Shown piece by piece: positions 3,163 through 64,000 of a stretch of 64,000 nucleotides of DNA; positions within the stretch are counted from its first letter, which is position 1; every line of letters begins with the position of its first letter. Source of the DNA: an uncultured bacterium. GTDB lineage: Bacteria; Patescibacteriota; Minisyncoccia; UBA6257; 2-01-FULL-56-20. Location: positions 41,609 to 105,608 of the forward strand of contig CAWJQC010000004.1 of NCBI GenBank assembly GCA_963844965.1. Direction: 5' to 3'. The position numbers and the translations under genes were made by a program. A model generated the notes under the pieces. The model had not been told where the DNA came from and did not search any database. It saw only the letters and a program-made list of their open reading frames with translations.

Positions 3163-3595
3163 CTATAACCCATTCTTGTTCAAAACCTCATTCACGACTC
3201 TATCCGCTTTTCTGTTCTCCTCGCGCGGCACGTGGCGGAATTCCACCATTTTAAAGTCAAATTTCAAATTCCATACACCGACGAACAGTGGCTGCAGGTT
3301 TTCTTCCATGATCTTATACTTGCCGTTCAGTTGTTTCACCACGAGTTCGGAATCCATCCTTATTTCAACATCCGACTCCTTCGCTTTCGCTTTGCCAATG
3401 AGCTGTTTTATTTTTTTAAGCGCGAAAATGACCGCTTCGTATTCGGCCTGATTGTTGGTCTTCTCGCCTAGATATTCGCCATATTCTTTATTATCAATCA
3501 CAACCCCGATAGCGGCCGGACCTGGATTTCCCCTGGAACCGCCGTCGGTATAAACGACGTATCTTTGATTCTTTGAATAATTGACCCTTCTTCAT
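3163..3595 (-). CDS. rnhA: ribonuclease HI, interrupted by one frameshift near 3560-3590
   Basis: The ORF gives VVYTDGGSRGNPGPAAIGVVIDNKEYGEYLGEKTNNQAEYEAVIFAL...RHVPREENRKAD, the RNase H catalytic motifs. The in-frame upstream stretch has no start codon. An ATG at 3595 overlaps the upstream gene's stop as ATGA but sits in another frame. Confidence 0.7.
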
Positions 3596-6098: not shown

Positions 6099-6266
6099 AT
6101 TATCTCGAAAGTTGCGGGTGGGGTGCAAACGATTCTACCGCAAACTGGTTTTTTTTGCGGTTTTGACATGTCCATGTTTCCCAACTCTATCACTTTAATT
6201 CTATCAGAACAGAGAAAATTATATGCATCTCGGTCTGTCCGATACTAAAACTAGGTGCGGGGAGTA

Positions 6267-10540: not shown

Positions 10541-10600
10541 TGAGCCGAGGAGAGGAGTCGAACCTCCAACCTACGGTTTATCCCGATTTTGCAAAATTTG
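10541..10600 (-). pseudogene. tRNA-like 3' fragment (variable region, T-arm, acceptor 3' strand) lacking an anticodon arm
   Basis: The minus strand reads ...GTAGGTTGGAGGTTCGACTCCTCTCCTCGGCTCA: T-stem GGAGG/CCTCT, T-loop TTCGACT, acceptor 3' strand CCTCGGC. No D or anticodon arm can be drawn from the adjacent sequence. Confidence 0.55.
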
Positions 10601-10605
10601 CCTTG

Positions 10606-10677
10606 AGCCGGCGGTCGGATTTGAACCGACGACCTGCTGTTTACAAAACAGCTGCTCTGCCGCTGAGCTACGCCGGC
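10606..10677 (-). tRNA. tRNA-Thr (anticodon TGT)
   Basis: The minus strand reads GCCGGCGTAGCTCAGCGGCAGAGCAGCTGTTTTGTAAACAGCAGGTCGTCGGTTCAAATCCGACCGCCGGCT, with anticodon loop TTTGTAA. It is flanked on both sides by the palindrome ATTTTGCAAAA. Confidence 0.9.
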
Positions 10678-10792
10678 AATTTTTTTGCAAAATCGCGGAC
10701 TCGCGATATTGTAAGCAAATCGTAGATTTGCACAATATCGGAGCAAAACCGTTGCTCCCTGCCCCGCACCGAGCTTTGCTCTGGTGCGCGGG

Positions 10793-14512: not shown

Positions 14513-14608
14513 TAGAAAATAGTAAGTAGAAATTAGAAAATAGAATTTTGTCGGGATTTTCGGCGAAGTTCCGATTTCTATTTTCTATTTACTATTTTCT
14601 ACTTTCTA
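14513..14608. repeat. AT-rich low-complexity inverted repeat / bidirectional terminator hairpin (TAGAAA-word family)
   Basis: TAGAAAATAGTAAGTAGAAATTAGAAAATAGAA ... TTCTATTTTCTATTTACTATTTTCTA lies between convergent dnaE and the cytidylyltransferase gene. Related word repeats occur in many intergenic gaps. Confidence 0.6.
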
Positions 14609-15068: not shown

Positions 15069-16517
15069 TCATTTTTTCGGACGCATCAGCGGGAAAATCA
15101 CGGTCTCGCGCACGGGCTTGTCCATCAAAATCGCGAATAGGCGCTCTGACATGCCGAAACCGGCGGCGGGCGGCATACCGTACTCCATAGCTTCCAAGTA
15201 ATCCTCGTCCAGCCGCTGGGCTTCATTGTCCCCTTCCGCACGCAACTTCATCTGCTCCTCAAACCGCGCGCGCTGGTCAAGGGGGTCATTCAGTTCCGAA
15301 AAACCATTTCCCACTTCCGTGCCACAGGCCACTACCTGAAACCGTTCCGCGACTTTCGGATTTTTCCGACTGCGTTTGGCCAAGGGTACTAATTCAACCG
15401 GTGGGTCAACCAAAAAGCACGGCTCAATCAGTTTGGGTCGGATGGCTTTCTTATATATCAGATCAATAAGGCGTCCTCTGCCGAGATTTTCCTCCGGCTG
15501 CAGGCCGAAAGAACGTGCCGTGATAAAAAGCTCTTTGCGCGTGGCAACCGTCGGGTCAAGCCCGGCAGCTTTCTTAAATTCCTCCACGTAATTCACTTTC
15601 GGCCACCTCTTCCCCCAGTTTATTTTTTTGCCGCCGAAGGTCACGGTAAAACCGCCGCAGGTTTTTTTGACAACGGCTTTGTACATTTTTTCCACGGACG
15701 CCATCATGTCGTTGTAATCGGCGTAAGCCCAGTAGTATTCCATGTGCGTGTAGTCCTGCAGATGTTCCTTGTCTATGCCTTCGTTGCGGAACACGCGGCC
15801 AATCTCAAAGACCCTTTCAAAACCGGCGACGAGAAGTTTTTTCAAAGACAGTTCCATGGATATGCGCAGGTAGAAGTCAACATCCAGCGCATTGTGATGC
15901 GTTTTGAACGGCTCGGCGTCCGCGCCTCCGGGAACGCTCTCCAGAACGGGCGTTTCCACTTCCAAAAATCCTTCGCCCTTAAGATAATTGCGGATAGTTT
16001 CCCAAAAAACGGCTTTCTTCTCAAAAAGCACCTTTGCTTCCGGATTCATAAGCAAATCCAGGTATCGTTTCCGCAGGCGCGTTTCAATGTCTTCCAGCCC
16101 GTACCACTCGCTCGGCAACGGACGCAGGGATTTCGCCAGTATTTTAAGCTCTTTAACTTCCAGACTTTCCTCTCCTTTTTTCGTCTTGAACAACGAGCCA
16201 CCCGCGTAAATAAAATCGCCGATGTCCAAAACGGATTTCCAAAATTCAAAATCCGGCAAATTGTCTTTCTTCAAAACCAGCTGCAGCTTGCCCGTGGCGT
16301 CTGCCAGATCAAGAAACACGATATTCCCCTGGTCGCGCGAGCCCAAAATGCGCCCGACCAAAGAAATCTTCTTCCGGGATTTCGCCAGCGCGTTGAATCT
16401 TTTCCGCGCCTCGGCAATCGCAAGCGTCCGCTTCGCCTCCGGCGGATACGGGTCGAGCTTCACTTTCTTTATTTCTTCCAGCTTCTTCAACCGCTCTTTG
16501 ATAAGATCGTCAAGCAT
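15069..16517 (-). CDS. lysS: lysyl-tRNA synthetase, class II
   Basis: 482 aa. It has an OB N-domain and class II motifs (FLEVETPVLE, RISMELSLKKLLVAGFERVFEIGRVFRNEG, GMPPAAGFGMSERL). Confidence 0.95.
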   Translation of the reverse strand: MLDDLIKERLKKLEEIKKVKLDPYPPEAKRTLAIAEARKRFNALAKSRKKISLVGRILGSRDQGNIVFLDLADATGKLQLVLKKDNLPDFEFWKSVLDIGDFIYAGGSLFKTKKGEESLEVKELKILAKSLRPLPSEWYGLEDIETRLRKRYLDLLMNPEAKVLFEKKAVFWETIRNYLKGEGFLEVETPVLESVPGGADAEPFKTHHNALDVDFYLRISMELSLKKLLVAGFERVFEIGRVFRNEGIDKEHLQDYTHMEYYWAYADYNDMMASVEKMYKAVVKKTCGGFTVTFGGKKINWGKRWPKVNYVEEFKKAAGLDPTVATRKELFITARSFGLQPEENLGRGRLIDLIYKKAIRPKLIEPCFLVDPPVELVPLAKRSRKNPKVAERFQVVACGTEVGNGFSELNDPLDQRARFEEQMKLRAEGDNEAQRLDEDYLEAMEYGMPPAAGFGMSERLFAILMDKPVRETVIFPLMRPKK

Positions 16518-16617
16518 TAGATTAATTATGCCCCATTATCAATCAAAATTCAAAATCGGGATAACATAAAAAGCTGTTTTTGCCGACAGGCTAAAACACC
16601 TTATATCCAAAAGAATT

Positions 16618-16748
16618 GAGTGGCGTTTCTTGGGAAACCCGCAGCCGATTTAGCTAGGTCTTTGCCGAAAGGCAAAGTAAATCGGCGAGGACAAGTCGAA
16701 TTTGCCGCCGGAGCAAATTCGACGGGTTCCCAAGAAATCTCGCCGCTC
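16618..16748 (-). other. 131-nt three-helix structured element (ncRNA, leader or palindromic element) between greA and lysS
   Basis: The outer stem is GAGTGGCG-TTTCTTGGGAAACCCG / CGGGTTCCCAAGAAAtctCGCCGCTC. It encloses two near-perfect hairpins: CCGATTTA..CTTTGCCgaaaGGCAAAG..TAAATCGG and GTCGAATTTGCcgccggaGCAAATTCGAC. Confidence 0.5.
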
Positions 16749-16755
16749 GATTCCC

Positions 16756-17215
16756 TCACTCTATCTTAGTAATCTGGTATACAATCTGTCCCGCCGGCGC
16801 GTTAACGGTCACGCTGTCGCCGACTTTCCTGCCGATGAACGCTCTGCCGAGCGGCGATTCGTCGGAAATCTTTCCTTCCTCCGGCTTCGCTTCATAAGAA
16901 CCGACTATCGTGTAACGCGCAATCTGATTCTCCTTTCTTGGCGAAAACCGTGGAGCAGACGCCAACTTTCTCCGCTCCTTCTGTCTTCTTTATAATCACC
17001 GCTTTTTTCAGAAGTTCCTCCAGATCAAAAATCCGCGTCTCAACGAGCGCCTGCTCTTCCCTCGCCTCCGCGTACTCGGAATTTTCCGAAAGGTCGCCGT
17101 ATTCCTTCGCGTGACGCAAACGCTCCGCGATTTCCGCGCGTTTCGTATTTTTCAGAACGTCAAGTTCCTGCTTCAATTCCTCAAGACGTTCTTTTGTTAA
17201 GTAATATCTGTCCAC
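16756..17215 (-). CDS. greA: transcription elongation factor GreA, split by one frameshift near 16930-16940
   Basis: The N-terminal coiled coil (EYGDLSENSEYAEAREEQ) is in one ORF. The C-terminal domain (ARYTIVGSYEAKPEEGKISDESPLGRAFIGRKVGD) is in the next frame. Removing one A from gccaagAAAgg restores ...FAKKENQIARYTIVG. Confidence 0.85.
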
Positions 17216-17277
17216 GATAGAAAATTAAAAAATTTAAAAATCAAAATGCAAAATTTGGGTGTCCTACGGACCAGATT

Positions 17278-18141
17278 TTATAATTTGTCAATTTTAAATT
17301 TTTCATTGTTATTTTGAACTTTGATTTTTACATTTTCAACTTGATACTTGCCGGTCCACAGCCACCAACGAATTTTACACGTTTCCCATAAAGTTTTCAA
17401 GTAGGCGGAAGCCGGAAGCCTTGAGCGGGCATCGTTCACCCAATGAACCGGAATTTCCTTAATTTTGTAGCCGAATTTCTTGGCCAATGCCAGGATCTCC
17501 ACGTCAAATCCCCAACCGCTGATTTTTGATAAATTGAAAATTTTTTCCGCTGCCTCATCCGTAAACGCCTTGAAGCCACACTGCGTGTCCCAAATCTTCG
17601 GCAACAGCAGTGCTTGAATGATCAAATTCCCGACCTTTCCCGGGATCTGGCGGTAGAAGGGCTGCGGCGGGTCAAGTTTGCTTCCTTTGAGCACGCGGTC
17701 ACAGATCACGACATCATATCTCTCGCGCGCCGCCACGGTCGGCGCAGAAAGCGTTCCCAGTTTCATATCATCCGAATCCGACTCAACTGGTACGCCTCCC
17801 GGAGCAAAATACGGCATCATGGCATTGAAGTGATCTATGGACGTAGAATTGTCGGCATCGGTGAAGAGCCGAATCTTCCCCCTTGCGAGAAGCATTCCCT
17901 GCCGGACAACTCCGCCCTTGCCCTTGTTCTCGGAATTATCTATCAGCTTGAGGTTTTTGATAAGCTTCGCCATATTGCTGACGATTTGGGCGGTGTTGTC
18001 CTTTGAGCCGTCGTTCACGACCAAAATTTCGTAGGAATATTCCGCGTCTGCCAGGCGCTTGTCAATATCAACGAGCGTCAAGGGCAGCCGCTCGGCCTCG
18101 TTGTAGGCGGGAATGATGATAGAAAGATAGGGCTGGGCCAT
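17278..18141 (-). CDS. family 2 glycosyltransferase (dolichyl/polyprenyl-phosphate glycosyltransferase-like)
   Basis: LSIIIPAYNEAERLPLTL...VVNDGSKDNT...DADNS are GT2 (GT-A) motifs. Confidence 0.8.
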   Translation of the reverse strand: MAQPYLSIIIPAYNEAERLPLTLVDIDKRLADAEYSYEILVVNDGSKDNTAQIVSNMAKLIKNLKLIDNSENKGKGGVVRQGMLLARGKIRLFTDADNSTSIDHFNAMMPYFAPGGVPVESDSDDMKLGTLSAPTVAARERYDVVICDRVLKGSKLDPPQPFYRQIPGKVGNLIIQALLLPKIWDTQCGFKAFTDEAAEKIFNLSKISGWGFDVEILALAKKFGYKIKEIPVHWVNDARSRLPASAYLKTLWETCKIRWWLWTGKYQVENVKIKVQNNNEKFKIDKL

Positions 18142-18144
18142 TGA

Positions 18145-18232
18145 AATAGAAAATAGAATTTAGAAAGTAGAAAGTAGTAGGTAGTAGGAAGAAAAAACTG
18201 AAAATTTCTAAATTCTAATTTCTGATTTCTAA
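18145..18232. repeat. AT-rich low-complexity inverted repeat (TAGAAA/GTAGTAG words)
   Basis: AGAAAATAGAATTTAGAAAGTAGAAAGTAGTAGGTAGTAGG ... TTTCTAAATTCTAATTTCTGATTTCTA lies between the GT2 gene and map. Confidence 0.5.
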
Positions 18233-19038: not shown

Positions 19039-19793
19039 TACGAAAACAAAACCCGATAAAAGTCCACTGAGCCGGCGGAGGCCTTCCTCACGGTGGTTTT
19101 TCTGCCGATGCCGCGCGTTCGCAGCATAATCGTACCAATTATCTTGTTGAGCACTTTATATGGCGCGGCTCTGGCGTTAATAACTTCCAGGTTGTAACCC
19201 AATTTATCCAAAATATTGAAAACCGGCTCGGTGCGATTCTTATACTCCTTAAGACGTACCTTGATCACCTCCGGTTTATCCAATGAACGTCTGTAAAAAT
19301 TTCCGCCGCACACGGGGCAATACCTCGGCTTAACCTTGGGGTAATATTTCGCAAGCAGCGTGTAGCCGCAGGATTTACACACCATGCGGGCGCCGTTTCT
19401 CTTGATTGAATATTCTGCCGGCAGCCGCAACTCAAAAATAAATATATTCTCCCGGCCATAAAGCCGATCCAAAATCGGCATAAGCCGCTCGCCTTCGTAA
19501 ACGGTGCGCGGCGAGCCGCTGAAAGCGACGCCGAATCCCGCCTGCGCGATCTTCGTGACCGCGTTCGCCACCTCGCGCGAAACAAAGCTCGGTGTCATCA
19601 AAATCCCGCCATCAAAAAGTTTCCGCTCGCGCTTTACAATTTTTTCTTTCTGCCGCGCCTGGTCGTGCACAACCGATTCCAAAAATTTTCCCGTGTCAAA
19701 ATGAATCAGGTTCAGTTTTTGCGCCAATAAATTCGCCTGTGTTCCCTTACCCGAACCCGGCGGCCCGTAAATTATAATGGCGATTTTTTTCAT
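19038..19793 (-). CDS. adk: adenylate kinase (zinc-lid type) with a basic C-terminal tail
   Basis: P-loop IYGPPGSGKGTQA and lid CKSCGYTL...YCPVCGG. The last ~30 residues are atypical and may be read-through. Confidence 0.9.
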   Translation of the reverse strand: MKKIAIIIYGPPGSGKGTQANLLAQKLNLIHFDTGKFLESVVHDQARQKEKIVKRERKLFDGGILMTPSFVSREVANAVTKIAQAGFGVAFSGSPRTVYEGERLMPILDRLYGRENIFIFELRLPAEYSIKRNGARMVCKSCGYTLLAKYYPKVKPRYCPVCGGNFYRRSLDKPEVIKVRLKEYKNRTEPVFNILDKLGYNLEVINARAAPYKVLNKIIGTIMLRTRGIGRKTTVRKASAGSVDFYRVLFS

Positions 19794-19917
19794 CCCGTTA
19801 GAGACAGGGAACGCTTCGCCAGTTAGACGAACCGCTATCTGTCATTATTATTTTTGATAAATGAAGTTGGTTTGTGTAAATTAAGCGTCCCCGTAGCGAA
19901 GCGGTCTCTAACGGGAT
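19792..19917. repeat. long imperfect inverted repeat abutting the adk start codon
   Basis: ATCCCGTTAGAGAC(agggaa)CGCTTCGC ... GCGAAGCGGTCTCTAACGGGAT: arms of 14+8 bp around a ~75 nt AT-rich loop. One arm ends at the adk ATG. Confidence 0.5.
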
Positions 19918-21814: not shown

Positions 21815-22291
21815 GTTTCTTCCCTCCGATTTGAGATACCCAACCAGAAAAAGCTGGGCTATAAGACCGAAAACTAGATTGTGCAGAACTACTTATATGT
21901 TAGCATATAGTCAATAATAAGTCAAGTGCTTAAAAACGCTTGATTTTGTTGGCTAAAACGTACTTCGCCCTGCTATCAAGAAAGCGCACGGAGATTCTTC
22001 GCATGGCTCAGAATGACACCGGCTCTTTATAAAAAATCCGTTTTGCGCCAGCAAAACTCCTTATTTCCTACAGCATTGAGGGATGTTTCTTTGGAACCAG
22101 AAGCGGAGGCCGCGCAAAAATGAATGAGTGCGGCGAAGATTTTTAAAAGCCGATTTTGCCGTGAGGCAAAATCACCTTAAGCACTCGCAGAAGTTTTTGT
22201 TTCGCGAGGGTGTATCGCAGGAGCGAAGGCGACGAGATGCAGCGCGTTTTCAGCAGAAAACGACGCGACCATCGCGAAATAAAAACTGGAG

Positions 22292-23564
22292 CTACTCGAT
22301 GCCCTCGTATTCGCGAACCGTCAGCTGCGAATCCACCTGCCTCATTGTCTCCAAGCGCTACCGCGACAACGATCAGAAGCGCCGTGCCCGAAATATTCAG
22401 GACCTGGACGCCGGTAAAGCGCTGGATGACGAGCGGCAAAACCGCGATCAAACCCAGAAACGCTGCGCCGAAAAACGTGATGCGGTTAACGATACCGGAA
22501 AAGAATTGGGTGGTCGCCTCGCCGGGCCGGATACCCGGAACGAATCCGCCACCCTTCTGGAGATTTTTGGCGACCTCTTCCGGATTGAACGTAATGGCGG
22601 TGTAGAAATATGTGAAAATGAAAACCAGGGCGAAGTAGAAAATTCCGTAAAAAATCTGATTGTTCAAAAACGCCGTCACGAAGCCGTTTATTTTAAGCGC
22701 GAGACTCGGAGAAAAAATGGTCGCGGCCTGAGCGATGAACTGCGGGAACAGAAGGACCGAGATCGCGAATATCAAGGGAATCATTCCGGCCTGGTTCACC
22801 TTGAGCGGTAGATAGCTTTGCGCGCCGCCATACATTTTCATGCCGCGAACCCGCCGCGCGTAGGCGACGGGAATTTTCCGTTCTCCCTCGTTCAGATAAA
22901 CCACGCCGGCGATAAGCAAGACGGCCACTACAACGAAACCGATATACGTCGGCAAAAGCGCCGGCTGATACGAAAGAAGCGCGAGTCCGAAAGACGAAGG
23001 CAGACGGCTCACGATACCCGCTAAAATTATGAGCGATATGCCGTTCCCCACCTTCTCTTCGCTTATAAGTTCTCCGAGCCACAAGGCGAGCATGGAACCC
23101 GTAACGATTACCACGACGTTCCTTATCATACTGAAAGGATCCGGCCTGTCTATGACGTTCTGGGATATGAGGAGCGTCAAAAATCCGTAAGCCGAAACGA
23201 CGGCCAGCGGCACGGTTATGAAACGCGAGTAGCGGTTGAACTTCGCCTGGCCGCGGGCTCCTTCCTCGTAATACATCTGCTTAAACTTCGGGAAAATAAT
23301 CGTGAGAAGCTGCATGATGATCGTAGCCGTGATATATGGTCCAACGCCAAGCATGACAACGGACATGTTCACAAGTCCGCCGCCCGAGAAGAAATTCAAA
23401 AATCCTAAGAGCTGATTGGAGTTGAAATAATTCTGAAGTCTAAGCGCGTCCACCCCCGGAATAGGTATCGCGGCCAGGAGCCGGTAAGCGATCAAAAACA
23501 GTGCGACCTTCAAAATTTTGTTGCGAAGGTCCTTGATTTTAAAAATTTGGAGGAATCTGTTCAT
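22292..23564 (-). CDS. secY: preprotein translocase subunit SecY, frameshift ~20 codons before the true stop
   Basis: A typical SecY throughout (GIPIPGVD..., GGGLVNMSVVMLGVGPYITATIIMQLL). After ...LLIVVAVAL the conserved tail ETMRQVDSQLTVREYEGIE* is in another frame (stop at 22292). The ORF-track extension to 22143 is an artefact of an extra base near 22352-22358. Confidence 0.9.
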
Positions 23565-24574: not shown

Positions 24575-24700
24575 TTTCTAATATCTAATTTCTAATTTCT
24601 AAACAATATTTGAAATTCCAATGACAAAAACTTAAAATGGTCTGTTTTCAATTTGGGACTTAGAAATTGGGGTTTGTTTAGGATTTAGAAATTAGGAATT
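24575..24700. repeat. AT-rich low-complexity inverted repeat (TTTCTAA words)
   Basis: AAATTTCTAATATCTAATTTCTAATTTCTAAAC ... TTAGAAATTGG..TTTAGAAATTAGGAATTAGG lies between rpsE and rplR. Confidence 0.5.
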
Positions 24701-24707
24701 AGGGCTT

Positions 24708-30204: not shown

Positions 30205-30268
30205 AAATTTTCAATTTCCAATTTTCCAATTTCCAAACGTTTGGAAATTCTGAACTTGGAATTATTTT
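30205..30268. repeat. AT-rich low-complexity inverted repeat (CCAATTTCC words)
   Basis: TTTCCAATTTTCCAATTTCCAAACGTTTGGAAATTCTGAACTTGGAA lies between rpsS and rplB. Confidence 0.5.
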
Positions 30269-46121: not shown

Positions 46122-46221
46122 ATCAACAATAATATCCGAAAACCGCGGTCTTTGCCAATTAAGAAAAAACAAATTAAAATGAGCATGTCGCCCTCGTGGT
46201 GAAACTTGCCCTCCCACCTTT

Positions 46222-46294
46222 GTCCCTGTAGCTCAACGGATAGAGCGTGTGGCTTCGAACCACAAGGTTGCAGGTTCAAATCCTGCCAGGGACG
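46222..46294 (+). tRNA. tRNA-Arg (anticodon TCG)
   Basis: GTCCCTGTAGCTCAACGGATAGAGCGTGTGGCTTCGAACCACAAGGTTGCAGGTTCAAATCCTGCCAGGGACG, with loop CTTCGAA. It is bracketed by the perfect inverted repeat CCCTCCCACCTTTG / CAAAGGTGGGAGGG. Confidence 0.9.
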
Positions 46295-46321
46295 CAAAGG
46301 TGGGAGGGTGAAGATATCATA

Positions 46322-53623: not shown

Positions 53624-56305
53624 ATGAGTGGGATAAAAATAAATCTTTCTCTCAGCGAAATCCCAGGCATCGGCCCGCGTTTTCTGGAACGGCTGGGAAA
53701 ACTCGGCATAAAAACCGTCCGTGATCTCATTTATCATTTTCCGGCCCGCTACGAGGATTTCTCCCAGATATACAAAATTTCCGACGTTGAGCCGGGGGAA
53801 CAGGTAACAATACGTGGCGTTGTTGAAGACACCAAACTGCGGCGGACTTGGAGAAAACACATGACAATCGCCGAAGCCCTGATCCGCGACGATTCCGGAA
53901 CGATACGCGCCATCTGGTTCAACCAACCATATGTTTTGAACACTCTGCGGGTCGGGCGCACGGCGAATTTCGCAGGCAAAATATCCATATCGGACGAGGA
54001 CGAAATTTATTTGAGCCACCCGGCTTATGAAATCGTCGGCAGTCGGGAGTCGGGAACGGAGAAGCAAGAAACAAAACATACAGCGCGGCTCGTCCCCATT
54101 TATCCCGAAACGCGCGGCCTCACATCCAAGGGGTTGAGATATCTGATCCAGCCAATTCTGAAAAACAGCGAACAGCTGGAGGAATGGCTGCCGCCGGAAG
54201 TTCTGCGCGAAAATAATTTTCCCGAAATAAACCTTGCGCTCAGATCCATACACTTCCCCGAAAAAACCGAGGATGCTCTTGTCGCGAAAAAACGCTTCAC
54301 TTTTGAAAACCTGTTCCTGCTGCAACTCGCCAATCTTGAACAAAAATTGAAACTCGCGCGCGAAAAAGCGCCAGTGATCAAAACCGACATAGAACACCTG
54401 AAAAAAATGATCTCGGAACTGCCATACGAACTCACGTTTTCGCAAAAGAAATCATTGTGGGAAATCATCCAGGACCTCGCCAAAAAACAGCCGATGAACC
54501 GCCTGCTCCAGGGCGACGTGGGCTCCGGCAAGACGGTTGTCGCGGCGCTCGCCGCGGTAATTACCGCGGAAAACGGGCTGCAGACCGCGTTTATGGCGCC
54601 AACCGAGGTTCTCGCGAGACAGCATTTTGAAACATTGAAAAAATTATTCGCCGGAATTCCCTCGATCCATCAACCCGTAGTTGGGCTTCTCACGTCAAGC
54701 GAAGCAAAAATCCTCTACGCGACAGACCTTGAATCAAAAATCAAAAAACCGGAGTTGCAGGAAAAAATAAAAAACGGCGAGGTAAAAATAGCCATCGGCA
54801 CGCACGCTTTGATACAAAAAGACGTGGCGTTCGGCAATCTTGCCTTTATCATCATTGACGAACAGCATAGATTCGGCGTCTCACAACGAGCTGCGCTCGT
54901 TCGCGGACAGACGCAGAATGATAATACGCGGACAGACGCTGAACAACTACTATACGAAAAAACGACGTTTGAGATAAGAAAAAGTCTGTTTGAGGTGAGA
55001 AAACAACTGGGCCTTGGTCATAAAGAAGTGGTGTATCAGAAAGCATTGGAGGAGGAGTTCAAGAAATCCGGTGTAATATTTGAGAAAGAAAAGAAAATTC
55101 CTGTCGTTTATAACAAGAAAAAGATTGGCGTTTATCAACCGGATTTTGTCATAGATAATGAAGTAATTTTGGAACTTAAGGCTCTTCCCTTTATCGGCGG
55201 CATCGAAAAAAAACAGCTGTGGAATTATTTGAGGGGTTCGGATTACAAACTCGCGCTTATGGCAAACTTTGGACCGGAAAGATTATCCATAGAGCGGGTA
55301 GTATACGATATTGCGCGGAGTCGGCGGCTGTCAGCGTCCGGTCAGCAACTGTCCGCGCCTATCCCCCACCTCCTCTCAATGTCCGCCACGCCAATCCCAC
55401 GCACGCTCATGCTCACCGTCTTCGGCGATTTGGATATATCGCTCATCACCGAACTTCCCGCCGGCAGAAAAAATATCGTAACAAAAATAATCCCCCCACG
55501 GGGCAGGAGCGAAGCCTATGAATTCATCCGCGGCGAAGTGAGGGCCAGCCGGCAGGTTTTTGTCATCTGCCCCCGCATTGACAAACCGCAGACAGGCGCA
55601 GACCACACGCAGACAAACGCAGACAAGACACAGACAGACGCAGACAATTTTCAGCGGCTGTCTGCGTCAAGTCAGCGACTGTCCGCGTTAAGTCCACGTA
55701 AGTCCGCGTTAGTGTGGGAAGTAAGATCCGTGAAAGAAGAATTTGAAAAATTATCCAAGAAAATTTTTCCGGATTTGCGCGTCGCCATGCTCCACGGCCA
55801 GCTCAAGCCAAAAGAAAAAGCGGGTATCATGAAGGACTTCCGCAACTACAAAATAGATATTCTCGTTTCAACTTCCGTCGTGGAAGTTGGCGTGGACGTG
55901 CCGAACGCAACAATAATGATGATTGAAGGCGCCGATCGCTTCGGGCTGGCTCAGATCTACCAATTCCGCGGACGCGTGGGGCGCGGCGAACACCAATCCT
56001 ATTGCTTCCTGTTCACGGATTCGTCCGCCAAAACTACGCGCGAGCGGCTGCAGGCCGTCCTTGAAGCCAAGAACGGCTTTGAGCTCGCCGAGAAGGACCT
56101 GAAGATCCGCGGTCCCGGCGAATTCCTCGGCACGGCGCAGACCGGCTTTCCCGACACGGCGATGAGCGGCCTCATGAACCCGGAGCTCGTGAAAGCAAGC
56201 CGCGAAGCGGCGGCAAAAATCGTCCAAAAAGATCCGCTTTTCAAAAATTATCCGCTCCTGAAAACCAAATTAAACGAGTTCCGGAAGGAAATCCACTTGG
56301 AGTAG
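53624..56305 (+). CDS. recG: ATP-dependent DNA helicase RecG carrying two in-frame insertions
   Basis: Wedge/OB N-terminus; motif I GDVGSGKT; motif II [11 protein letters not shown]; motif III [9 protein letters not shown]; later [15 protein letters not shown] and QFRGRVGRG. 893 aa against ~680-700 expected. The excess is accounted for by 54908-55357 and 55589-55708. Confidence 0.92.
   Translation: [893 protein letters not shown]
54908..55357 (+). other. 450-nt in-frame insertion in recG encoding a GxxExxY-family (PD-(D/E)XK-like) domain flanked by inverted word repeats
   Basis: [87 protein letters not shown] matches the GxxExxY pattern. The flanks are cgcggacagacgcagaat..tacgcggacagacgctga and the reverse-complement-like ctgtcagcgtccg..ctgtccgcgc. 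Confidence 0.75.
55589..55708 (+). repeat. 120-nt in-frame palindromic insertion in recG (solo copy of the same word-repeat arms)
   Basis: cagacaggcgcagaccacacgcagacaaacgcagacaagacacagacagacgcagaca attttca gcggctgtctgcgtcaagtcagcgactgtccgcg. It translates as [40 protein letters not shown]. Confidence 0.7.
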
Positions 56306-56571: not shown

Positions 56572-59017
56572 CTACTGCTCCATATGACCGACAAGGGTGC
56601 ATGTATAAAAGTTACCAGTGCATTGGGATGAATTAGTAACATCCCAACAAGTTGAATAAGTCTCCAGCGCGCCACTACAAGGAGTGGTATTAGCGCATGA
56701 ACTGTTGTAGTAACGAATATAAGTCATATACTGCGGGCAGAAGTAAATCGGCGTCCCGCCTGTAACTTTAAGAGTGCCGGGAATGATGACGTTGCCGTTT
56801 GCTAGAACCTGTATAGCTGCTCCGGTTGTAGTAGCTGTACCAGTATTCGGCATACTGCCGCCAATACCGACGTTGCCGGCATAGTTGATGACTAATTTAT
56901 TTGATTCTGCCGCACTAGGATAATTTCCCACCATAAGCATGGCGCCCTGATTAACATCGCCCACATCGAGCAGCACCGCATCCGCATTGGTCGTAGCCGC
57001 GGTGCCGTAGAACGTGCCGGTATTGGTATCCCTGTTCTGCTCGAACTGGGTGCCGTAATCACCGGTGTTATACAAGAACGAATAGGTGGGATTACTAAAA
57101 TCGCTGTACATCTCAAGGCCGGGGCCGGTACCGGCAGTATTTGAATATGCATAAAATTGATAGTTGGCGGGCGCCGCCGCTCCCACCCCGATTCCGGAGG
57201 TGAATAAACCTCCTCCAGTTACCGTCAGTTTCTGGGTCGGCGCCGTATTCCCGATGCCGACGTTGCCGGAGGAATTCCAAATACCGGTGCCAGGCATCGT
57301 AACGTTGCCAGTAAAGGTCGGGCTCGCTAAAAGCGCCGCTCCGGTAACCTGCGCTACCCCGTAGTCACCAGATGCCGCCACCACGGCTCCGGTTCCGCCA
57401 AATACCGAGGTGACGCCGCCGCTCGGCCAAGCCGTGATGCAATTCGCCCCGGAGATGCAATATTGAGTGGCGTTTGCGGTAACCGTTGACGTACAGAGCG
57501 TACCCTCCGCCTGAGTTTGTGAAATACCCACCGTAGCCGCCGGAGTTGGTGGCTAATCCATAAACTCCTACGCCGTTACCTGCCGCTGACTGTCCGGCAA
57601 CCCCTACCCAGTAAGAAGCGCCGACCTGTCCGCCGAGAATCCCATTCGTTGTGGCGTTGCTATTATTTCCCGTTACCGAGCCGACCCATGATGAATTGAC
57701 GGCGCTCGTGAAACTGCCTACGCCAGCAACAACCAACGGATATGCCGGCGTCGTCGTCCCGATGCCGACGTTGCCGTTCGTGATGGAGAAATATGGACCA
57801 CCCCCCATCCCAGTGCCAAGCGCCAAATTGAGGCCATAAGATTGTGACGTCAAATCAGCGTATGTAAATGCTCCGTTGCTGGTGGTGAACTTTATCCAAT
57901 CTACGTTTGACCCGTTTGTATTGTCTAGCCGTAAGGTAGACGTACTTCCACTCTGAATATCAAGTTTTGCGACCGGCGCCGTGTTCCCGATGCCGACGTT
58001 GCCGTTGTTATTTATAAACAAGGCGGGTGACGCGCCGGATGAGTCAGAACCCTGAGTCAAAAAGGCCATTGGAGAACCGTTACTGCCGATCCGGGCCCAG
58101 TTCGCAACTGCTGCCGGTCCAAGCTGTAGCAAGGCATCGGTACCGTTAGATGTCAAGTCAAACTTGGCGAATTTTGACCCGTTCACGACATGCAACGTCG
58201 TTGCCGGCGACGCCGTCCCGATGCCGACGTTGCCGCCATATGCAAGCGTCATTATTTGGGAGTACCAACTGCTGGGGTTCTGATACCCAATCGTCAAGAC
58301 CGAATTATCTGACGCTGGTGCAAAAACATACCCATTATTACTGCCAGCCATATCGCGGAGCTTGAAGGCTCCAAAGACATCAAGTGTATTTTGTGGTGAC
58401 GGCGTCCCGATGCCGACCGAGCCCGAGAAATACCCGCCGCCGTAGACGGAGAGGGCCTGCGGCAAGTTGCTGGCGGAGGATGTGGTAACGCCCAGAGCGG
58501 AAGAAACAAACACACTGTGGGGGAACCCGTAGGGAACGCCGGAATCGGCCTCTAGAGAATTGAACACCGCGGGCGTGACATAGCCGGCGTTGACGGTCCC
58601 GTTAAAATTGCCGTGGATCGTGCCGTTCACGTCAAGCTGGTAGCCAGGCGACGCCGTCCCGATGCCGACAGAACCGTCATTGCGCACGACAAGTATGGGC
58701 GACGAATTCGGATAAAGGATCTTCAATGTGTAATTCGCGGCATCAGCGGACGAAGAAGCAACGATGAGGAGTTTGGTTTCCGGCAGAGGCGTGGGCGTAC
58801 CAACGCCCAGATTCCCAGCCGCATTAGTGCTTACCGCTCCCGAACCGAAACCGGGGGTGGGAGGAGGAGAGGCAAACGCGTAGTAGGTAGTAGGTAGTAG
58901 GTAGTAGGTAGTAGCGAGAATGACGAAAAACAAAACGTGCGGCGCAAAACTCGGACGCACACCGTAAAACTTGCGGCGGAGCTTTTGCTGTTTTTGGAAC
59001 AAATCTGCGTCCATCAT
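56572..59017 (-). CDS. large secreted tail-fibre-like repeat protein (GNVGIG repeats), split by one frameshift near 57525-57540
   Basis: About 815 aa when ORFs 57365..59017 and 56572..57531 are joined (..GGGYALYVNGY / GISQTQAEGTLCTS..). The motif NGNVGIG(T/N)(A/T)(S/A)P recurs. It has an N-terminal hydrophobic segment and a Cys-rich C-terminus. Confidence 0.6.
58880..58914. repeat. heptanucleotide tandem repeat (GTAGTAG)x5 inside the 5' coding region of the tail-fibre-like gene
   Basis: gtagtaggtagtaggtagtaggtagtaggtagtag encodes ..ATTYYLLPTTYY.. on the minus strand. An inverted partner (TACTACC x3.5) lies at 59025-59049, upstream of the ATG at 59017. Confidence 0.8.
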
Positions 59018-59186
59018 AATAATTTACTACCTACTACCTACTACCTACCGCTTTTAATTGTTTCGGGGCGACAATCTCATAGCTTTATTATATAAGAACA
59101 GGGAAAGATATGTAGAAAGGGGTGTGCATAGGCGCGAAAACTGCCCGAGCGGCGGCCGCAAATTTCCCGGCCATCCGGGATATAAA

Positions 59187-59251: not shown

Positions 59252-59959
59252 CTAGTGGCCGACGATGGGTGGAAGACCGGCCTGGTAGCGGCGGTAATTC
59301 CCCATGTACCGGTCCGCCACCTGAATATTCCGCACGCCGTACCAAACGTGAACCGTGCTAAGGTAACCGGCAAAGCCGATGCTTGCGAGACGCTCGGCCC
59401 TCACCATTCTCCTGCCCCACTTATGTCCCCCCCATTTATGCTCTGTCCAGCGAGGGATAGCCGAAGAAAAGTAGGAAAAAACGACATCGAACGCCGAGGC
59501 GCTCCCTAACACCCCAGCAATATTGCGATTGCCAAATTGGGTATATAGGGAGTCCGTCTCACGGGGGCCCTGCTGGCTAGCATAACGCAAACCGTTGCTA
59601 GCGACGTACTCTGGAATAAAGGGTGGCGTAGAGAGGGAACGGAACGTGGTTATGTTGTCAAACGCAAATGGCCCGCGCTCAACACCCCACATCCAAGCCT
59701 GTGTCCTCTCAAGCTTGCTCTGGTCCCGGTTTAACTTGCCGCCAGGCCAAGCCATAACCCTAAACACCTTATCAAAGGTTGATGGCTCAACCGGTGCCGC
59801 CGAACGCAAGGGCGAGATAGCGGGTGCGAGTGCCGGTGCAGACGCGGCGGATGCCGCCACGGGCGTTGACGCTAAGGGCAGTTCGGTAAGACCGTCTGCC
59901 GGAAACGCGCGAACCGAAATGATTGTCAAGATTGTCAACAAAAGCACCAGTCGCTTCAT
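59252..59959 (-). CDS. hypothetical secreted protein
   Basis: MKRLVLLLTILTIISVRAFPA is a signal peptide, followed by an Ala/Pro-rich linker. No family recognised. Confidence 0.5.
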   Translation of the reverse strand: MKRLVLLLTILTIISVRAFPADGLTELPLASTPVAASAASAPALAPAISPLRSAAPVEPSTFDKVFRVMAWPGGKLNRDQSKLERTQAWMWGVERGPFAFDNITTFRSLSTPPFIPEYVASNGLRYASQQGPRETDSLYTQFGNRNIAGVLGSASAFDVVFSYFSSAIPRWTEHKWGGHKWGRRMVRAERLASIGFAGYLSTVHVWYGVRNIQVADRYMGNYRRYQAGLPPIVGH

Positions 59960-60178
59960 AACGACCTCCTCAAAAAGATTTAATTTAATTGCGCAAAGCA
60001 ATTTGGCTACTCCCAAGAATAACCAAATCGCTTTGCGCAAGCAATATATTCATTTTTCAAGATACTTGCCTATCTATGCTAATTATAGCACAAATAAACA
60101 ACCTGTCAACCCCCACCTTTTTCCGAAAAGGTGGGGGTCAAGTGGCCGCGGCGGCTGACCCGCTGAAGCGACGATACC

Positions 60179-60438
60179 CTACAACTCATAAATCTCATCT
60201 CGCTTGCCTATTTTGAGTATATAAATTGCGCCATTTCTAACGTCAAATACCAACCTATAATCGCCCACGCGAAATCTGAACTCCCCGCCGCGGTTGTCAG
60301 CCAAACGCTTGGCAAACCTCAACGGATTATCCTCTGACGCATAAATGCGCATCTTCTTTGCTTTGCGATGCGCACTTGAACTTCTCTCGGCAGGGATTCC
60401 AACTGCTTAGCCGCCCGCTTGGCATAGAAAATCTTCGT
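60179..60438 (-). pseudogene. decayed copy of the RelE/ParE toxin gene
   Basis: About 97% identical by eye to 62204..62458, but the start ATG is mutated to ACG (cgt at 60436-60438) and a 5-nt insertion (ctttgctttgcg versus cttcgcg) shifts the frame. Confidence 0.7.
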
Positions 60439-62458: not shown

Positions 62459-62634
62459 TACAATCCCAACTTCTTAAACAGCTTATCCTGCGATATAGTT
62501 TTTTTTGCCTTGATTTCTTTTCTCGCTTCGCGGACATCCAAAATATGCGCGAGGTAGCCAAGCAGGGCGCCGAAGCGAGCATCCGTTTTCCTCAAACGCT
62601 CGTATTCTTGTTTTGGTATAGTAACCGTGGTCAT
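62458..62634 (-). CDS. antitoxin (copy 2) of the RelE/ParE pair
   Basis: 58 aa, the same sequence as copy 1, translationally coupled to the toxin. Confidence 0.6.
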   Translation of the reverse strand: MTTVTIPKQEYERLRKTDARFGALLGYLAHILDVREARKEIKAKKTISQDKLFKKLGL

Positions 62635-62678
62635 ATTAAGTGCATTATAGCAAACCGGCGGCGGATGTCAACCCCCAC

Positions 62679-62738
62679 ACCAAACGAGGACGCGCGCCTT
62701 CGGCGCAGGACCCGGAAAGTCCTCGTTTGGTGTGGGGG
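62679..62738. repeat. 20-bp perfect-stem hairpin (CCCCCACACCAAACGAGGAC ... GTCCTCGTTTGGTGTGGGGG)
   Basis: A perfect inverted repeat around a 28-nt loop. The loop is present in the opposite orientation in the copy-1 region (60671-60697). Confidence 0.8.
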
Positions 62739-62946
62739 TAAATTATGCCGAAAAAGCCGGAAGGAAAGATGCGATCTATGTTTCTCCCGCAAGAATACCC
62801 CCGCCGCAGGCGGGGGATGAATTGCGGTTCGAGAAACATAAACCCCGCCGATGGCGGGGTGAACTACCACCTAACATGCTGCATGTGCTAAGTATTTCGT
62901 GCGCAGCACGGCAGTTGAGATACCACCGCTGTGAGGCGGTGGTAGT

Positions 62947-64000
62947 TCATTTCAGAAGAGCGTCAACTTTTTCTTGGAGCGCGGCGTTCTGCGCCTGAAG
63001 AGCGCTGATCTCTTGTTGCTGCTCCTTGATGGATTCTATCATCGGCGCGATAAGCCCAGTATAATCCAGACCAAGGGTTCCGCTCGCGTCAGTTTCCACC
63101 AACTGCGGGAAAACCGTCTGTACATTCTGCGCGGTTAAACCGAGCTGCTCTCCACTGCCCATCAGTTTTGTATCTTTCCATTCAAAGGAAACCGGCGTCA
63201 GTAACTCAAGCTCCGCAAGCGAACCCGACAGTGGAACTATATTCTTCTTCAAACGCTCGTCGGAGCTATTTATCCACTGCCCAGCATTGTTTGTATACTC
63301 GCCGTGGGCTCCCTGAAAGTCATACGTACTGCCGGAACCATAGACGCCGATTGCAGCAGTTGAAAACACCCCATACCCTGCGGGATTACCGAAGTATCCA
63401 GCGGAACCGTTCGCGCCCGCGGTATCCGAATATCCTTCCACCCCAACCCCAGTACCAGCGTTGTAGCCATAGACGGCGGGAAGACCATTACCAGTACCGT
63501 AGCCATAGACCCCATACCCAGTCGCACCAGCAGTGCCATAGACACCATACATAGAGCCGGTGCCATAAATCCCTGCCCCAGCTTGCCCGGCGCCACCGAC
63601 GCTTAATGTTGACGCCGGTGCCGTCGTCCCGATGCCGACGTTGCCGTTCGTGATGGAGAAATATGGACCACCCCCCATCCCAGTGCCAAGCGCCAAATTG
63701 AGGCCATAAGATTGTGACGTCAAATCAGCGTATGTAAATGCTCCGTTGCTGGTGGTGAACTTTATCCAATCTACGTTTGACCCGTTTGTTTTGTCTAGCC
63801 GTAAGGTAGACGTACTTCCACTCTGAATATCAAGTTTTGCGACCGGCGCCGTGTTCCCGATGCCGACGTTGCCGTTCGTGATGGAGAAATATGGACCACC
63901 CCCCATCCCAGTGCCAAGCGCCAAATTGAGGCCATAAGATTGTGACGTCAAATCAGCGTATGTAAATGCTCCGTTGCTGGTGGTGAACTTTATCCAATCT
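62947..64000 (-). CDS. tail-fibre-like repeat protein with a C-terminal intramolecular chaperone (Peptidase_S74 / endosialidase-chaperone) domain; N-terminus beyond the right window edge
   Basis: The C-terminus reads SSDERLKKNIVPLSGSLAELELLTPVSFEWKD...LGLTAQNVQTVFPQLV...LDYTGLIAPMIESIKEQQQEISALQAQNAAL, the S74 chaperone domain plus coiled coil. Upstream are 76-aa tandem repeats containing GNVGIG. Confidence 0.75.
   Translation of the reverse strand, partial: DWIKFTTSNGAFTYADLTSQSYGLNLALGTGMGGGPYFSITNGNVGIGNTAPVAKLDIQSGSTSTLRLDKTNGSNVDWIKFTTSNGAFTYADLTSQSYGLNLALGTGMGGGPYFSITNGNVGIGTTAPASTLSVGGAGQAGAGIYGTGSMYGVYGTAGATGYGVYGYGTGNGLPAVYGYNAGTGVGVEGYSDTAGANGSAGYFGNPAGYGVFSTAAIGVYGSGSTYDFQGAHGEYTNNAGQWINSSDERLKKNIVPLSGSLAELELLTPVSFEWKDTKLMGSGEQLGLTAQNVQTVFPQLVETDASGTLGLDYTGLIAPMIESIKEQQQEISALQAQNAALQEKVDALLK
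63628..64000. repeat. 228-bp (76-codon) tandem coding repeat, at least 1.6 copies in the window
   Basis: cccgatgccgacgttgccgttcgtgatggagaaatatggacc... restarts at 63628 and at 63856 and is near-identical. The same ~255 bp block occurs at 57752-58006 in the paralog. Confidence 0.85.

Follow-up and report, generated by a model that had tools for sequence, protein, structure and literature searches.

Results

The greA-lysS spacer and its three-way junction

We analyzed a 64-kb window of DNA from an uncultured bacterium (64,000 nt; GenBank assembly GCA_963844965.1, contig CAWJQC010000004.1, positions 41,609 to 105,608), concentrating on the 238-nt spacer between greA, a gene split over two reading frames, and the downstream gene lysS, and on the element in this spacer that is predicted to fold into a three-way junction. 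LysS homologues place the window among the Patescibacteria (Parcubacteria), with names including Paceibacterota and Liptonbacteria, and the gene cluster adk-map-(x)-glycosyltransferase-greA-lysS is conserved among the relatives, whose compared loci are labeled L001-L028. A preliminary description of the sequence had reported, at 16618-16748, an outer helix closing two hairpins, one of them nested; the folds confirm this architecture, and the description of its setting was correct as well, with the greA stop codon 7 nt from one end of that interval and the lysS ATG (16515-16517) 100 nt from the other. Coordinates are collected in Table 1.

The core outer helix consists of 15 bp and is perfect but for one bulged U (within 16635-16637), and three short added helices lengthen it to ~28 bp over the whole element. 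Hairpin B combines a 9-bp basal stem with an inner 7-bp hairpin that has the loop UUUC; both of its stems are perfect, and a 7-nt bulge, ACCUAGC, lies on its 3' side. Folded as the minus (sense) strand, the greA element reaches a minimum free energy of -72.5 kcal/mol, and folded as the plus strand, -78.8, compared with ~-42 kcal/mol for shuffled sequences (z -8.1 and -8.8, respectively; none of 200 shuffles as good), and in a 150-nt sliding fold of the 64 kb, the element came second on the plus strand, after the RNase P RNA. Covariance-model matches to it span 16608-16756, at 180.8, 158.7, and 130.5 bits. A second sample of the same species (L006) holds the 3' two-thirds of the element at 99% identity and without the bulged U; as greA and secY are both frameshifted in the window, the 1-nt bulge in the outer helix may be an assembly indel.

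Related elements and covariation

A covariance model based solely on the window sequence finds a full-length, sense-oriented match in L022 (2711-2857; 40 bits, E ~2e-8; antisense 9.5 bits), and a model of the window and L022 together finds further matches in L026 (3912-4060; 40 bits, E 4e-9) and L027 (3928-4083; 101 bits, E 8.5e-27). All three lie 3' of greA and on the greA strand, in loci with LysS proteins 67-72% identical to that of the window. The family as we define it has four full members (window, L022, L026, and L027) and one truncated member, located after secY in the window. An element directly after greA in L024 (1832-1977) has the same architecture (z -7) and shares CCAGCG and AUCUCGCUCG; it is possibly a diverged member but, because its model score is only 12-15 bits, it was left out of the family count.

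In the four-sequence alignment (A7), 91.7% of the pair cells hold standard pairs, and 40 of the 55 pairs are changed on both sides. None of 500 shuffles reached the observed values, and sliding the 3' partner by one to three columns left 33-49% pairing. The double changes affect 10 of the 12 pairs in helix 3 (hairpin A), where 100% of the cells are paired, and in helices 4 and 5 (hairpin B), they affect 8 of 9 and 4 of 7 pairs. From the same alignment, RNAalifold recovers the three-way junction with 37 compensatory pairs among 51 and a covariation term of -17 kcal/mol; when the alignment came from MAFFT, blind to structure, the outer helix and hairpin A were still recovered. The stems are, between species, almost entirely different in sequence, yet paired, and in each of the six pairwise sequence comparisons, conservation is higher in unpaired than in paired columns.

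The conserved positions form short motifs. The loop of hairpin A reads CCRGCG across the family, the junction reads CUUG(c)AUCUCG with its CUCG columns invariant in A7, the bulge of hairpin B reads RCCWRGC, and CU(c)CGAUAG is conserved 3' of hairpin B in A7; the greA copy of the window is without part of the junction consensus. Conservation extends to the inner half of the outer helix, which reads yUUUnnGrGrAyC opposite a pyrimidine-rich strand. Compensatory pairs across species combined with conserved unpaired positions, the pattern by which a conserved structured RNA is recognized, are thus found in a family of four full members and one truncated member; a complete lack of conservation, which the preliminary description had named as evidence against a functional RNA, is not what the relatives show.

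In the window, in L022 and L027, and in the secY copy, the start of the outer helix is 0-7 nt past the stop codon. What stays constant beside the element is this upstream stop codon, and the following gene varies (lysS, a GGACT-domain gene, or hypotheticals), with other genes between the greA element and lysS in L024, L026, and L027. The greA-lysS junction itself measures 0 nt in L003/L004 (LysS 81% identical to the window), 7 nt in L019 (76%), 289 nt with no gene in L022 (72%), and 0.7-2.2 kb with one to three unrelated small genes in L020, L024, L026, L027, and L028 (67-74%). Since the junction is so highly variable, the window's spacer of 238 nt does not represent the ancestral state of all relatives. 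At the post-greA position of L028, a plain GC hairpin with a U-run stands in place of the element. A LysS search with the L022 query for moderately diverged relatives found none closer than 79%.

The loci L001-L028 offer some further observations on this region. The greA-lysS junction is an insertion hot spot, ranging from 0 nt to 2.2 kb and taking up hypotheticals and the GGACT-domain gene; in L002, a DNA methyltransferase occupies the place where greA otherwise stands; and the spacer after lysS gains, in some relatives, 23S-rRNA-IVP/bAvd-like or PDDEXK_3 genes.

A second copy and the flanking signals

The truncated member behind secY scores 37.4 bits with the four-sequence model, R3 (E 9.5e-8 in 64 kb; antisense 14.3 bits). 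It starts 5 nt past the true secY stop codon (UAG, 22292-22294) and retains the outer helix and hairpin A, together with CUGCAUCUCG and CUGCGAUAC; hairpin B is nearly deleted. The greA and secY copies lie within 5.6 kb and are strongly diverged from each other, and a model search with filters off gave no further significant family match in the 64 kb. One other site, TGCATCTCGGTCTGTCCGATAC at 6224-6250 on the plus strand, matched two family motifs but sits in an unstructured spacer (z -0.6) and is probably a chance occurrence.

Both genes upstream of the two copies show frame disruptions. In greA, the shift falls within AAGAAAGGAGAA, at ~16935-16950, and a tblastn comparison of the L003 GreA with the window aligns amino acids 1-96 in frame -2 and 83-152 in frame -3; on its own, this could be either an assembly indel or a real frameshift. 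The long open reading frame (ORF) at 22143-23564 reads beyond the end of secY only because of a frameshift, the canonical C-terminus LETMRQVDSQLTVREYEGIE (…REYEGIE, then stop) being in another frame. That both genes are affected suggests assembly indel errors.

Terminator-like hairpins lie 21-27 nt beyond both window copies. They are ~84% identical over ~37 aligned columns and share the form UAAGGUG-UUUUGCC-N4-GGCAAAA-C-GCUUUU. A strict terminator consensus scan of 16300-17400 called none, the hairpin at 16568-16599 included, and the extended outer helix of the greA element is followed by only UUUU. In L027, the next gene has a promoter-like sequence of the form TTGACT-17-TATAAT.

Table 1. Features of the greA-lysS and secY regions, in window positions
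Feature	Position	Strand	Basis or remark
greA	16756-17215	minus	two overlapping frames, 16892-17215 and 16756-16965; ORF list
greA stop codon, UGA	16756-16758	minus	ORF list
Whole three-way-junction element with extended outer helix	16611-16755	minus	folds
Core outer helix, 5' arm, UUUCUUGGGAACCCG	16723-16737	minus	fold, alignment
Hairpin A, 10-bp perfect stem, loop UCCGGCG	16696-16722	minus	fold
Junction strand between hairpins A and B, CUUGUCCUC	16687-16695	minus	alignment A7
Hairpin B	16644-16686	minus	fold
Core outer helix, 3' arm, CGGG(U)UUCCCAAGAAA	16626-16641	minus	fold
Terminator-like hairpin, GUGUUUUAGCC-UGUC-GGCAAAAAC(AGC), then UUUUU	16568-16599	minus	fold; one mismatch
Promoter-like site, TTGAAT-17-CATAAT, ending 7 nt before the lysS ATG	16525-16553	minus	sequence prediction
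lysS, class II lysyl-tRNA synthetase, downstream gene	15069-16517	minus	ORF list, homologue search
Truncated family member after secY	22182-22295	minus	model R3 (four-sequence), fold z -5.6
Terminator-like hairpin behind the secY copy, UAAGGUGAUUUUGCC-UCAC-GGCAAAAUC-GGCUUUU	22145-22179	minus	perfect 9-10-bp stem
Further terminator-like site downstream of the secY copy	22040-22057
Promoter-like site, TTGACT-17-TAACAT, before a 144-amino-acid gene	21897-21925

Searches for known families and further copies

At gathering scores, an Rfam 15 cmscan (4227 families) of the whole window returned only RNase P and tRNAs. A permissive scan (E<=10) of 16450-16850 gave only chance matches to unrelated families, bearing out the preliminary statement that the element carries no T-box or L-box signature, and the homologous elements of L022, L024, and L026 matched no family. 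No description of the family was found in the literature searched. The spacer had nothing similar in phage and plasmid collections by blastn, and there is no near-identical copy of the element within the window. Exact-pattern scans with either outer arm plus 8 nt returned six single matches in genomes (596 Gb), six in JGI metagenomes, and none in IMG/VR, collections that do not include the source genome; these matches are confined to the pattern itself and occur in unrelated phyla, and we therefore consider them chance. The same holds for the 36 matches of a viral scan with TGCATCTCG…CTSCGATAG, as none of them has hairpin B.

Several other classes of element were considered and rejected. The hammerhead core, CUGANGA/GAAA, is not in the junction strands (absent, CUUGUCCUC, and UG in the window; CC, UGCAUCUC, and UCCGAUAGC in L022), and cmscan returned no ribozyme family. 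Integron attC sites are imperfect palindromes that stand in cassette arrays and are bounded by the core sites R'' (RYYYAAC) and R' (GTTRRRY); GTTRRRY is found at neither end of the element on either strand, and the neighbors are housekeeping genes in conserved order. A small ORF, UUG-started and 20-34 codons long, runs through the element in three species, but its starts and stops differ and an indel breaks the frame relative to the motif; we rejected a coding role because of the broken frame, the differing ends, and a covariation of the stems incompatible with coding constraint. For a small RNA (sRNA) read from the plus strand, no plus-strand promoter or terminator was found, and in every relative the sense orientation receives by far the higher model score; the helix extension of the window has two G-U pairs that favor the plus strand.

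Other structured regions of the window

Two tRNA genes, at 10606-10677 (minus) and 46222-46294 (plus), have flanks (10584-10695 and 46209-46308) that pair into a perfect 13-14-bp helix around each gene, and these helices look like processing stalks; that of the second tRNA abuts the acceptor stem directly. Immediately after this tRNA, and overlapping the 3' arm of its flanking helix, 46307-46359 matches part of the tRNA model (positions 9-63; 30.2 bits vs. a gathering score of 29). The RNase P RNA at 1493-1902 scores 100.2 against an Rfam gathering score of 100 and contains a 22-bp perfect hairpin (1782-1831) resembling an insertion.

Three perfect hairpins of 15-24 bp occupy the minus-strand spacer 59900-60220 (z -10.7), and at least six strong near-perfect hairpins are packed into the 450 nt at 62580-63030 (z -9.3), with a 21-bp perfect stem at 62671-62739; neither region has an Rfam match, and the latter may represent another structured RNA or a cluster of elements. 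At 58880-59048, a 24-nt perfect inverted repeat of (GTAGGTA)n encloses 118 nt and overlaps the start of a 550-amino-acid ORF (57365-59017). A long hairpin with GUCUGCG-like tandem repeats (55550-55750, minus; z -8) lies inside an 893-amino-acid ORF (53624-56305) on the opposite strand. Long perfect helices enclosing a 70-100-nt A/U-rich spacer occur at 19792-19917 (14+10 bp) and in L003 at 3410-3543 (21 bp); the 3' arm covers the adk start codon in the window and the greA Shine-Dalgarno sequence and AUG in L003. Finally, the spacers 14513-14608, 18148-18223, 24578-24702, and 30216-30261 contain low-complexity, stop-codon-rich inverted repeats (TAGAAAATAG…, CTAATTTCTAA…), one of them between the convergent dnaE and a CTP-transferase-like gene.

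Discussion

Our analyses identify a family of structured elements that has not been described before, is absent from Rfam, and is found in a clade of Parcubacteria (Patescibacteria). The kind of element is known, as structured 3' untranslated region (UTR) elements occur at operon boundaries; the family is new. The conserved loops and the conserved architecture argue for selection on a folded molecule. We take the sense RNA, and not the DNA, to be the selected form because the element stands between stop codon and terminator in the predicted transcript and because the model scores are much higher for the sense orientation. Its function can be proposed only tentatively: with a little less than even confidence, we read the element as an RNA stability or processing module of 3' UTRs, placed at the end of transcription units. 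Among the possibilities raised in the preliminary description, a processing or stability element is the one in best agreement with the evidence.

In the mechanism that we envisage, the element would be transcribed as the tail of the mRNA of the upstream gene, greA or, for the paralogue, secY. The tail would fold into the three-way junction, its 24-28-bp outer helix starting 0-7 nt past the stop codon and hence inside or just past the footprint of the terminating ribosome, and would be followed by a conventional hairpin-plus-U terminator, the next gene having a promoter of its own. The stable junction and the terminator hairpin could then form a cis barrier to 3'-to-5' exonucleases, and the outer helix, with its roughly two turns, would be a likely site for processing by a double-strand-specific (RNase III-type) enzyme. 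As an outcome, the stability of the upstream mRNA would be set, and that mRNA would be insulated from the downstream gene. The conservation of loop and junction nucleotides suggests that they may be recognized by a protein or another RNA. According to a published observation, the ribosome represses terminators that follow a stop codon by only a few base pairs (PMC4824070), which makes a structured spacer between stop codon and terminator plausible.

A number of observations weigh against this reading. The members are few, the pair counts come from model-fitted alignments, and the E-values of the models are rough. The copy of L026 lies ~155 nt past the stop codon, and its outer helix has decayed. 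The 3' arm of the junction is without a proper U-tract of its own, and a quick six-frame search confined to the 64-kb window turned up no signature motif of RNase III. Folding is about as good on one strand as on the other, and in the window, L022, and L027, the stems have hardly any G-U pairs, being almost purely Watson–Crick, features that also fit selection or generation at the level of DNA; the 13 G-U pairs against six A-C mismatches that the sense strand shows when the four members are summed are a weak sense-strand signal. Lastly, the distribution is patchy, the element missing in L003/L004, L019, L020/L021, and L028, a pattern equally compatible with a dispensable or mobile element and with repeated loss.

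Known systems resemble the element in part. The closest functional analogues are the repetitive extragenic palindromic (REP) elements and 3' RNase III sites such as sib of phage lambda. Cleavage at the latter exposes the upstream mRNA to decay (retroregulation), and sib shares with our element a long, near-perfect helix of about two turns just 3' of a coding region; however, sib is a single interrupted phage hairpin, whereas the helix studied here, a putative cleavage site, encloses two conserved hairpins. REP elements and the bacterial interspersed mosaic elements (BIMEs) of enterobacteria are located in 3' UTRs, often a few nucleotides past the stop codon and ahead of the terminator, are co-transcribed, and stabilize the upstream gene's transcript against 3' exonucleases. 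The likeness lies in a structured palindrome close to a stop codon in a 3' UTR and in more than one copy per genome. REP elements, however, are single imperfect hairpins of ~35 nt, conserved in stem sequence, present in hundreds of copies and associated with a RAYT (Y1) transposase, while our element is a three-way junction of 130-150 nt with covarying stems and conserved loops, represented by only two diverged copies in 64 kb, with no transposase seen alongside any copy; in size, in junction shape, and in having stems that are not conserved between members, it falls outside the REP/BIME definition. Clusters of strong hairpins packed behind stop codons at the ends of transcription units have been proposed to act as terminators (PMC8355165); here, by comparison, the hairpins are part of a conserved junction, and a separate, conventional terminator-like hairpin is present.

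The strongest alternative is a REP/BIME-like palindromic DNA repeat or a repeat resembling a miniature inverted-repeat transposable element (MITE), selfish or domesticated, that spreads to sites after stop codons; a transposase or another DNA-binding protein would then act on its hairpins in single-stranded or cruciform DNA, and effects on RNA would be secondary. The element does have terminal inverted repeats, formed by the core arms (16723-16737 and 16626-16641) and extending to 16611-16755, and its 130-150 nt recall ERIC, Correia (NEMIS), and the Rickettsia palindromic elements, which are likewise ~100-150 nt long with long terminal inverted repeats. Once transcribed, those elements form a big hairpin; they insert between the genes of operons, with effects on processing and stability. 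At least two copies within 5.6 kb, after two genes and sharing the ~84%-identical terminator module, would also suit a spreading repeat, as would the almost G-U-free stems and equally folding strands, the patchy presence at a junction prone to insertions (0 nt to 2.2 kb), and the frequency of long perfect inverted repeats in the spacers of this genome. The ERIC, Correia, and Rickettsia families, however, have many similar copies with conserved termini and, for Correia, target-site duplications, whereas the greA element keeps its syntenic place from species to species and lacks conserved termini. No direct repeat could be read by eye in the flanks of either the extended element (…GUGAGG, element, UUUUGG…) or the core (…GGCGAGA, core, CGCCACU…). 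The greA and secY copies differ strongly from each other, full-sensitivity model searching found no other in the 64 kb, and the exact-pattern scans of three large collections gave only chance matches. No transposase stands beside any copy in the gene tables inspected, and four species carry the element at the same site and in the same orientation. Terminal arms that differ between species and loops and junctions that are conserved are the reverse of what ends recognized by a transposase should show. We consider such a repeat unlikely, and the mobile element of MITE type that the preliminary description favored alongside a processing element does not agree with the lack of near-identical copies in the window and of a target-site duplication, the synteny at ~70% LysS identity, and the covarying stems.

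Two further readings, to each of which we attach a low probability, keep the RNA as the functional molecule but assign it a different task. According to the first, which we think rather doubtful, the junction is a Parcubacteria-specific class of RNA, a sensor or protein-binding module of the 3' UTR that works as a translation-coupled 3'-end switch: the termination of GreA or SecY translation would gate the folding of a junction whose base lies within the footprint of the terminating ribosome, the folding would in turn gate RNase cleavage or use of the terminator, and the conserved loops would bind a dedicated partner. The second, just as doubtful, is a discrete sRNA or a protein- or ligand-binding RNA for which the outer helix serves as a processing stalk, as around the tRNAs of this genome; cleavage would free a two-hairpin RNA of ~95 nt, whose motifs CCRGCG, YCUCG, and RCCWRGC would act in trans or bind a factor. 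Unpaired motifs that are conserved while the stems covary are typical of RNAs with a binding partner, the perfect 13-14-bp helices enclosing two window tRNAs supply the parallel for the stalk, and at the foot of hairpin B, a short additional helix carries an A-U/U-A swap in A7 (CAUC/GAUAG in L022/L027 vs. CUUC/GAAAG in L026). On the other hand, the truncated copy behind secY has been retained despite being without hairpin B and without CCRGCG in the loop of hairpin A, and the greA copy of the window has itself lost part of the junction consensus. We identified no target, no partner, and no promoter belonging to the element, and a pseudoknot pairing of loop A with the hairpin B bulge, traced by hand in A7, was rejected as not consistently supported, with one covarying position and an adjacent mismatch in two of the three sequences.

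It is also conceivable, though improbable, that the element has no function and is a by-product of replication, with template switching repeatedly making and re-perfecting palindromes in dispensable spacers and the likeness between species reflecting ancestry and the mutation process. Template switching is documented to make perfect hairpins and multi-base "compensatory" changes in a single step, and the near-perfect stems of the family, wholly different between species, match its reported products (PMC8794818). Perfect inverted repeats abound in the genome, and several relatives do without the element. Such a process does not account, however, for loops and junctions more conserved than stems across ~30% protein divergence, at which neutral spacers should be unalignable, or for an architecture that stays three-way, with its hairpins in the same order and its place behind the stop codon preserved.

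The cis-regulatory lysS leader considered in the preliminary description, a riboswitch-like or T-box-like sensor, is largely refuted and strikes us as extremely improbable: the element does resemble L-box and T-box leaders in being a multi-helix junction RNA upstream of a lysyl-tRNA synthetase gene and on its sense strand, and a three-way junction with conserved junction nucleotides is a common architecture of riboswitch aptamers, but neither the lysine riboswitch (RF00168), the T-box (RF00230), nor any other Rfam model matches, a predicted terminator-like hairpin and a promoter-like site intervene before lysS, other genes follow the element in L026, L027, and L024 and its paralogue follows secY, and the closest relatives have lysS 0-7 nt after greA; the element belongs to the 3' end of the upstream gene and not to a 5' leader of lysS.

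The Candidate Phyla Radiation is a very large group of uncultured organisms with reduced genomes, in which noncoding RNA and the control of mRNA ends are almost unexplored. Here, a family backed by covariation and present in no database occupies a defined place, after stop codons and ahead of terminators, and it therefore gives a concrete handle on how transcripts are delimited and stabilized in these organisms. The family also shows that stems may be fully rewritten and yet remain near-perfectly paired, which bears on the upkeep of palindromes by template switching or by selection. Should the junction work as a translation-coupled switch, or as an RNA that binds a protein, this would be a new regulatory principle for bacterial 3' UTRs.

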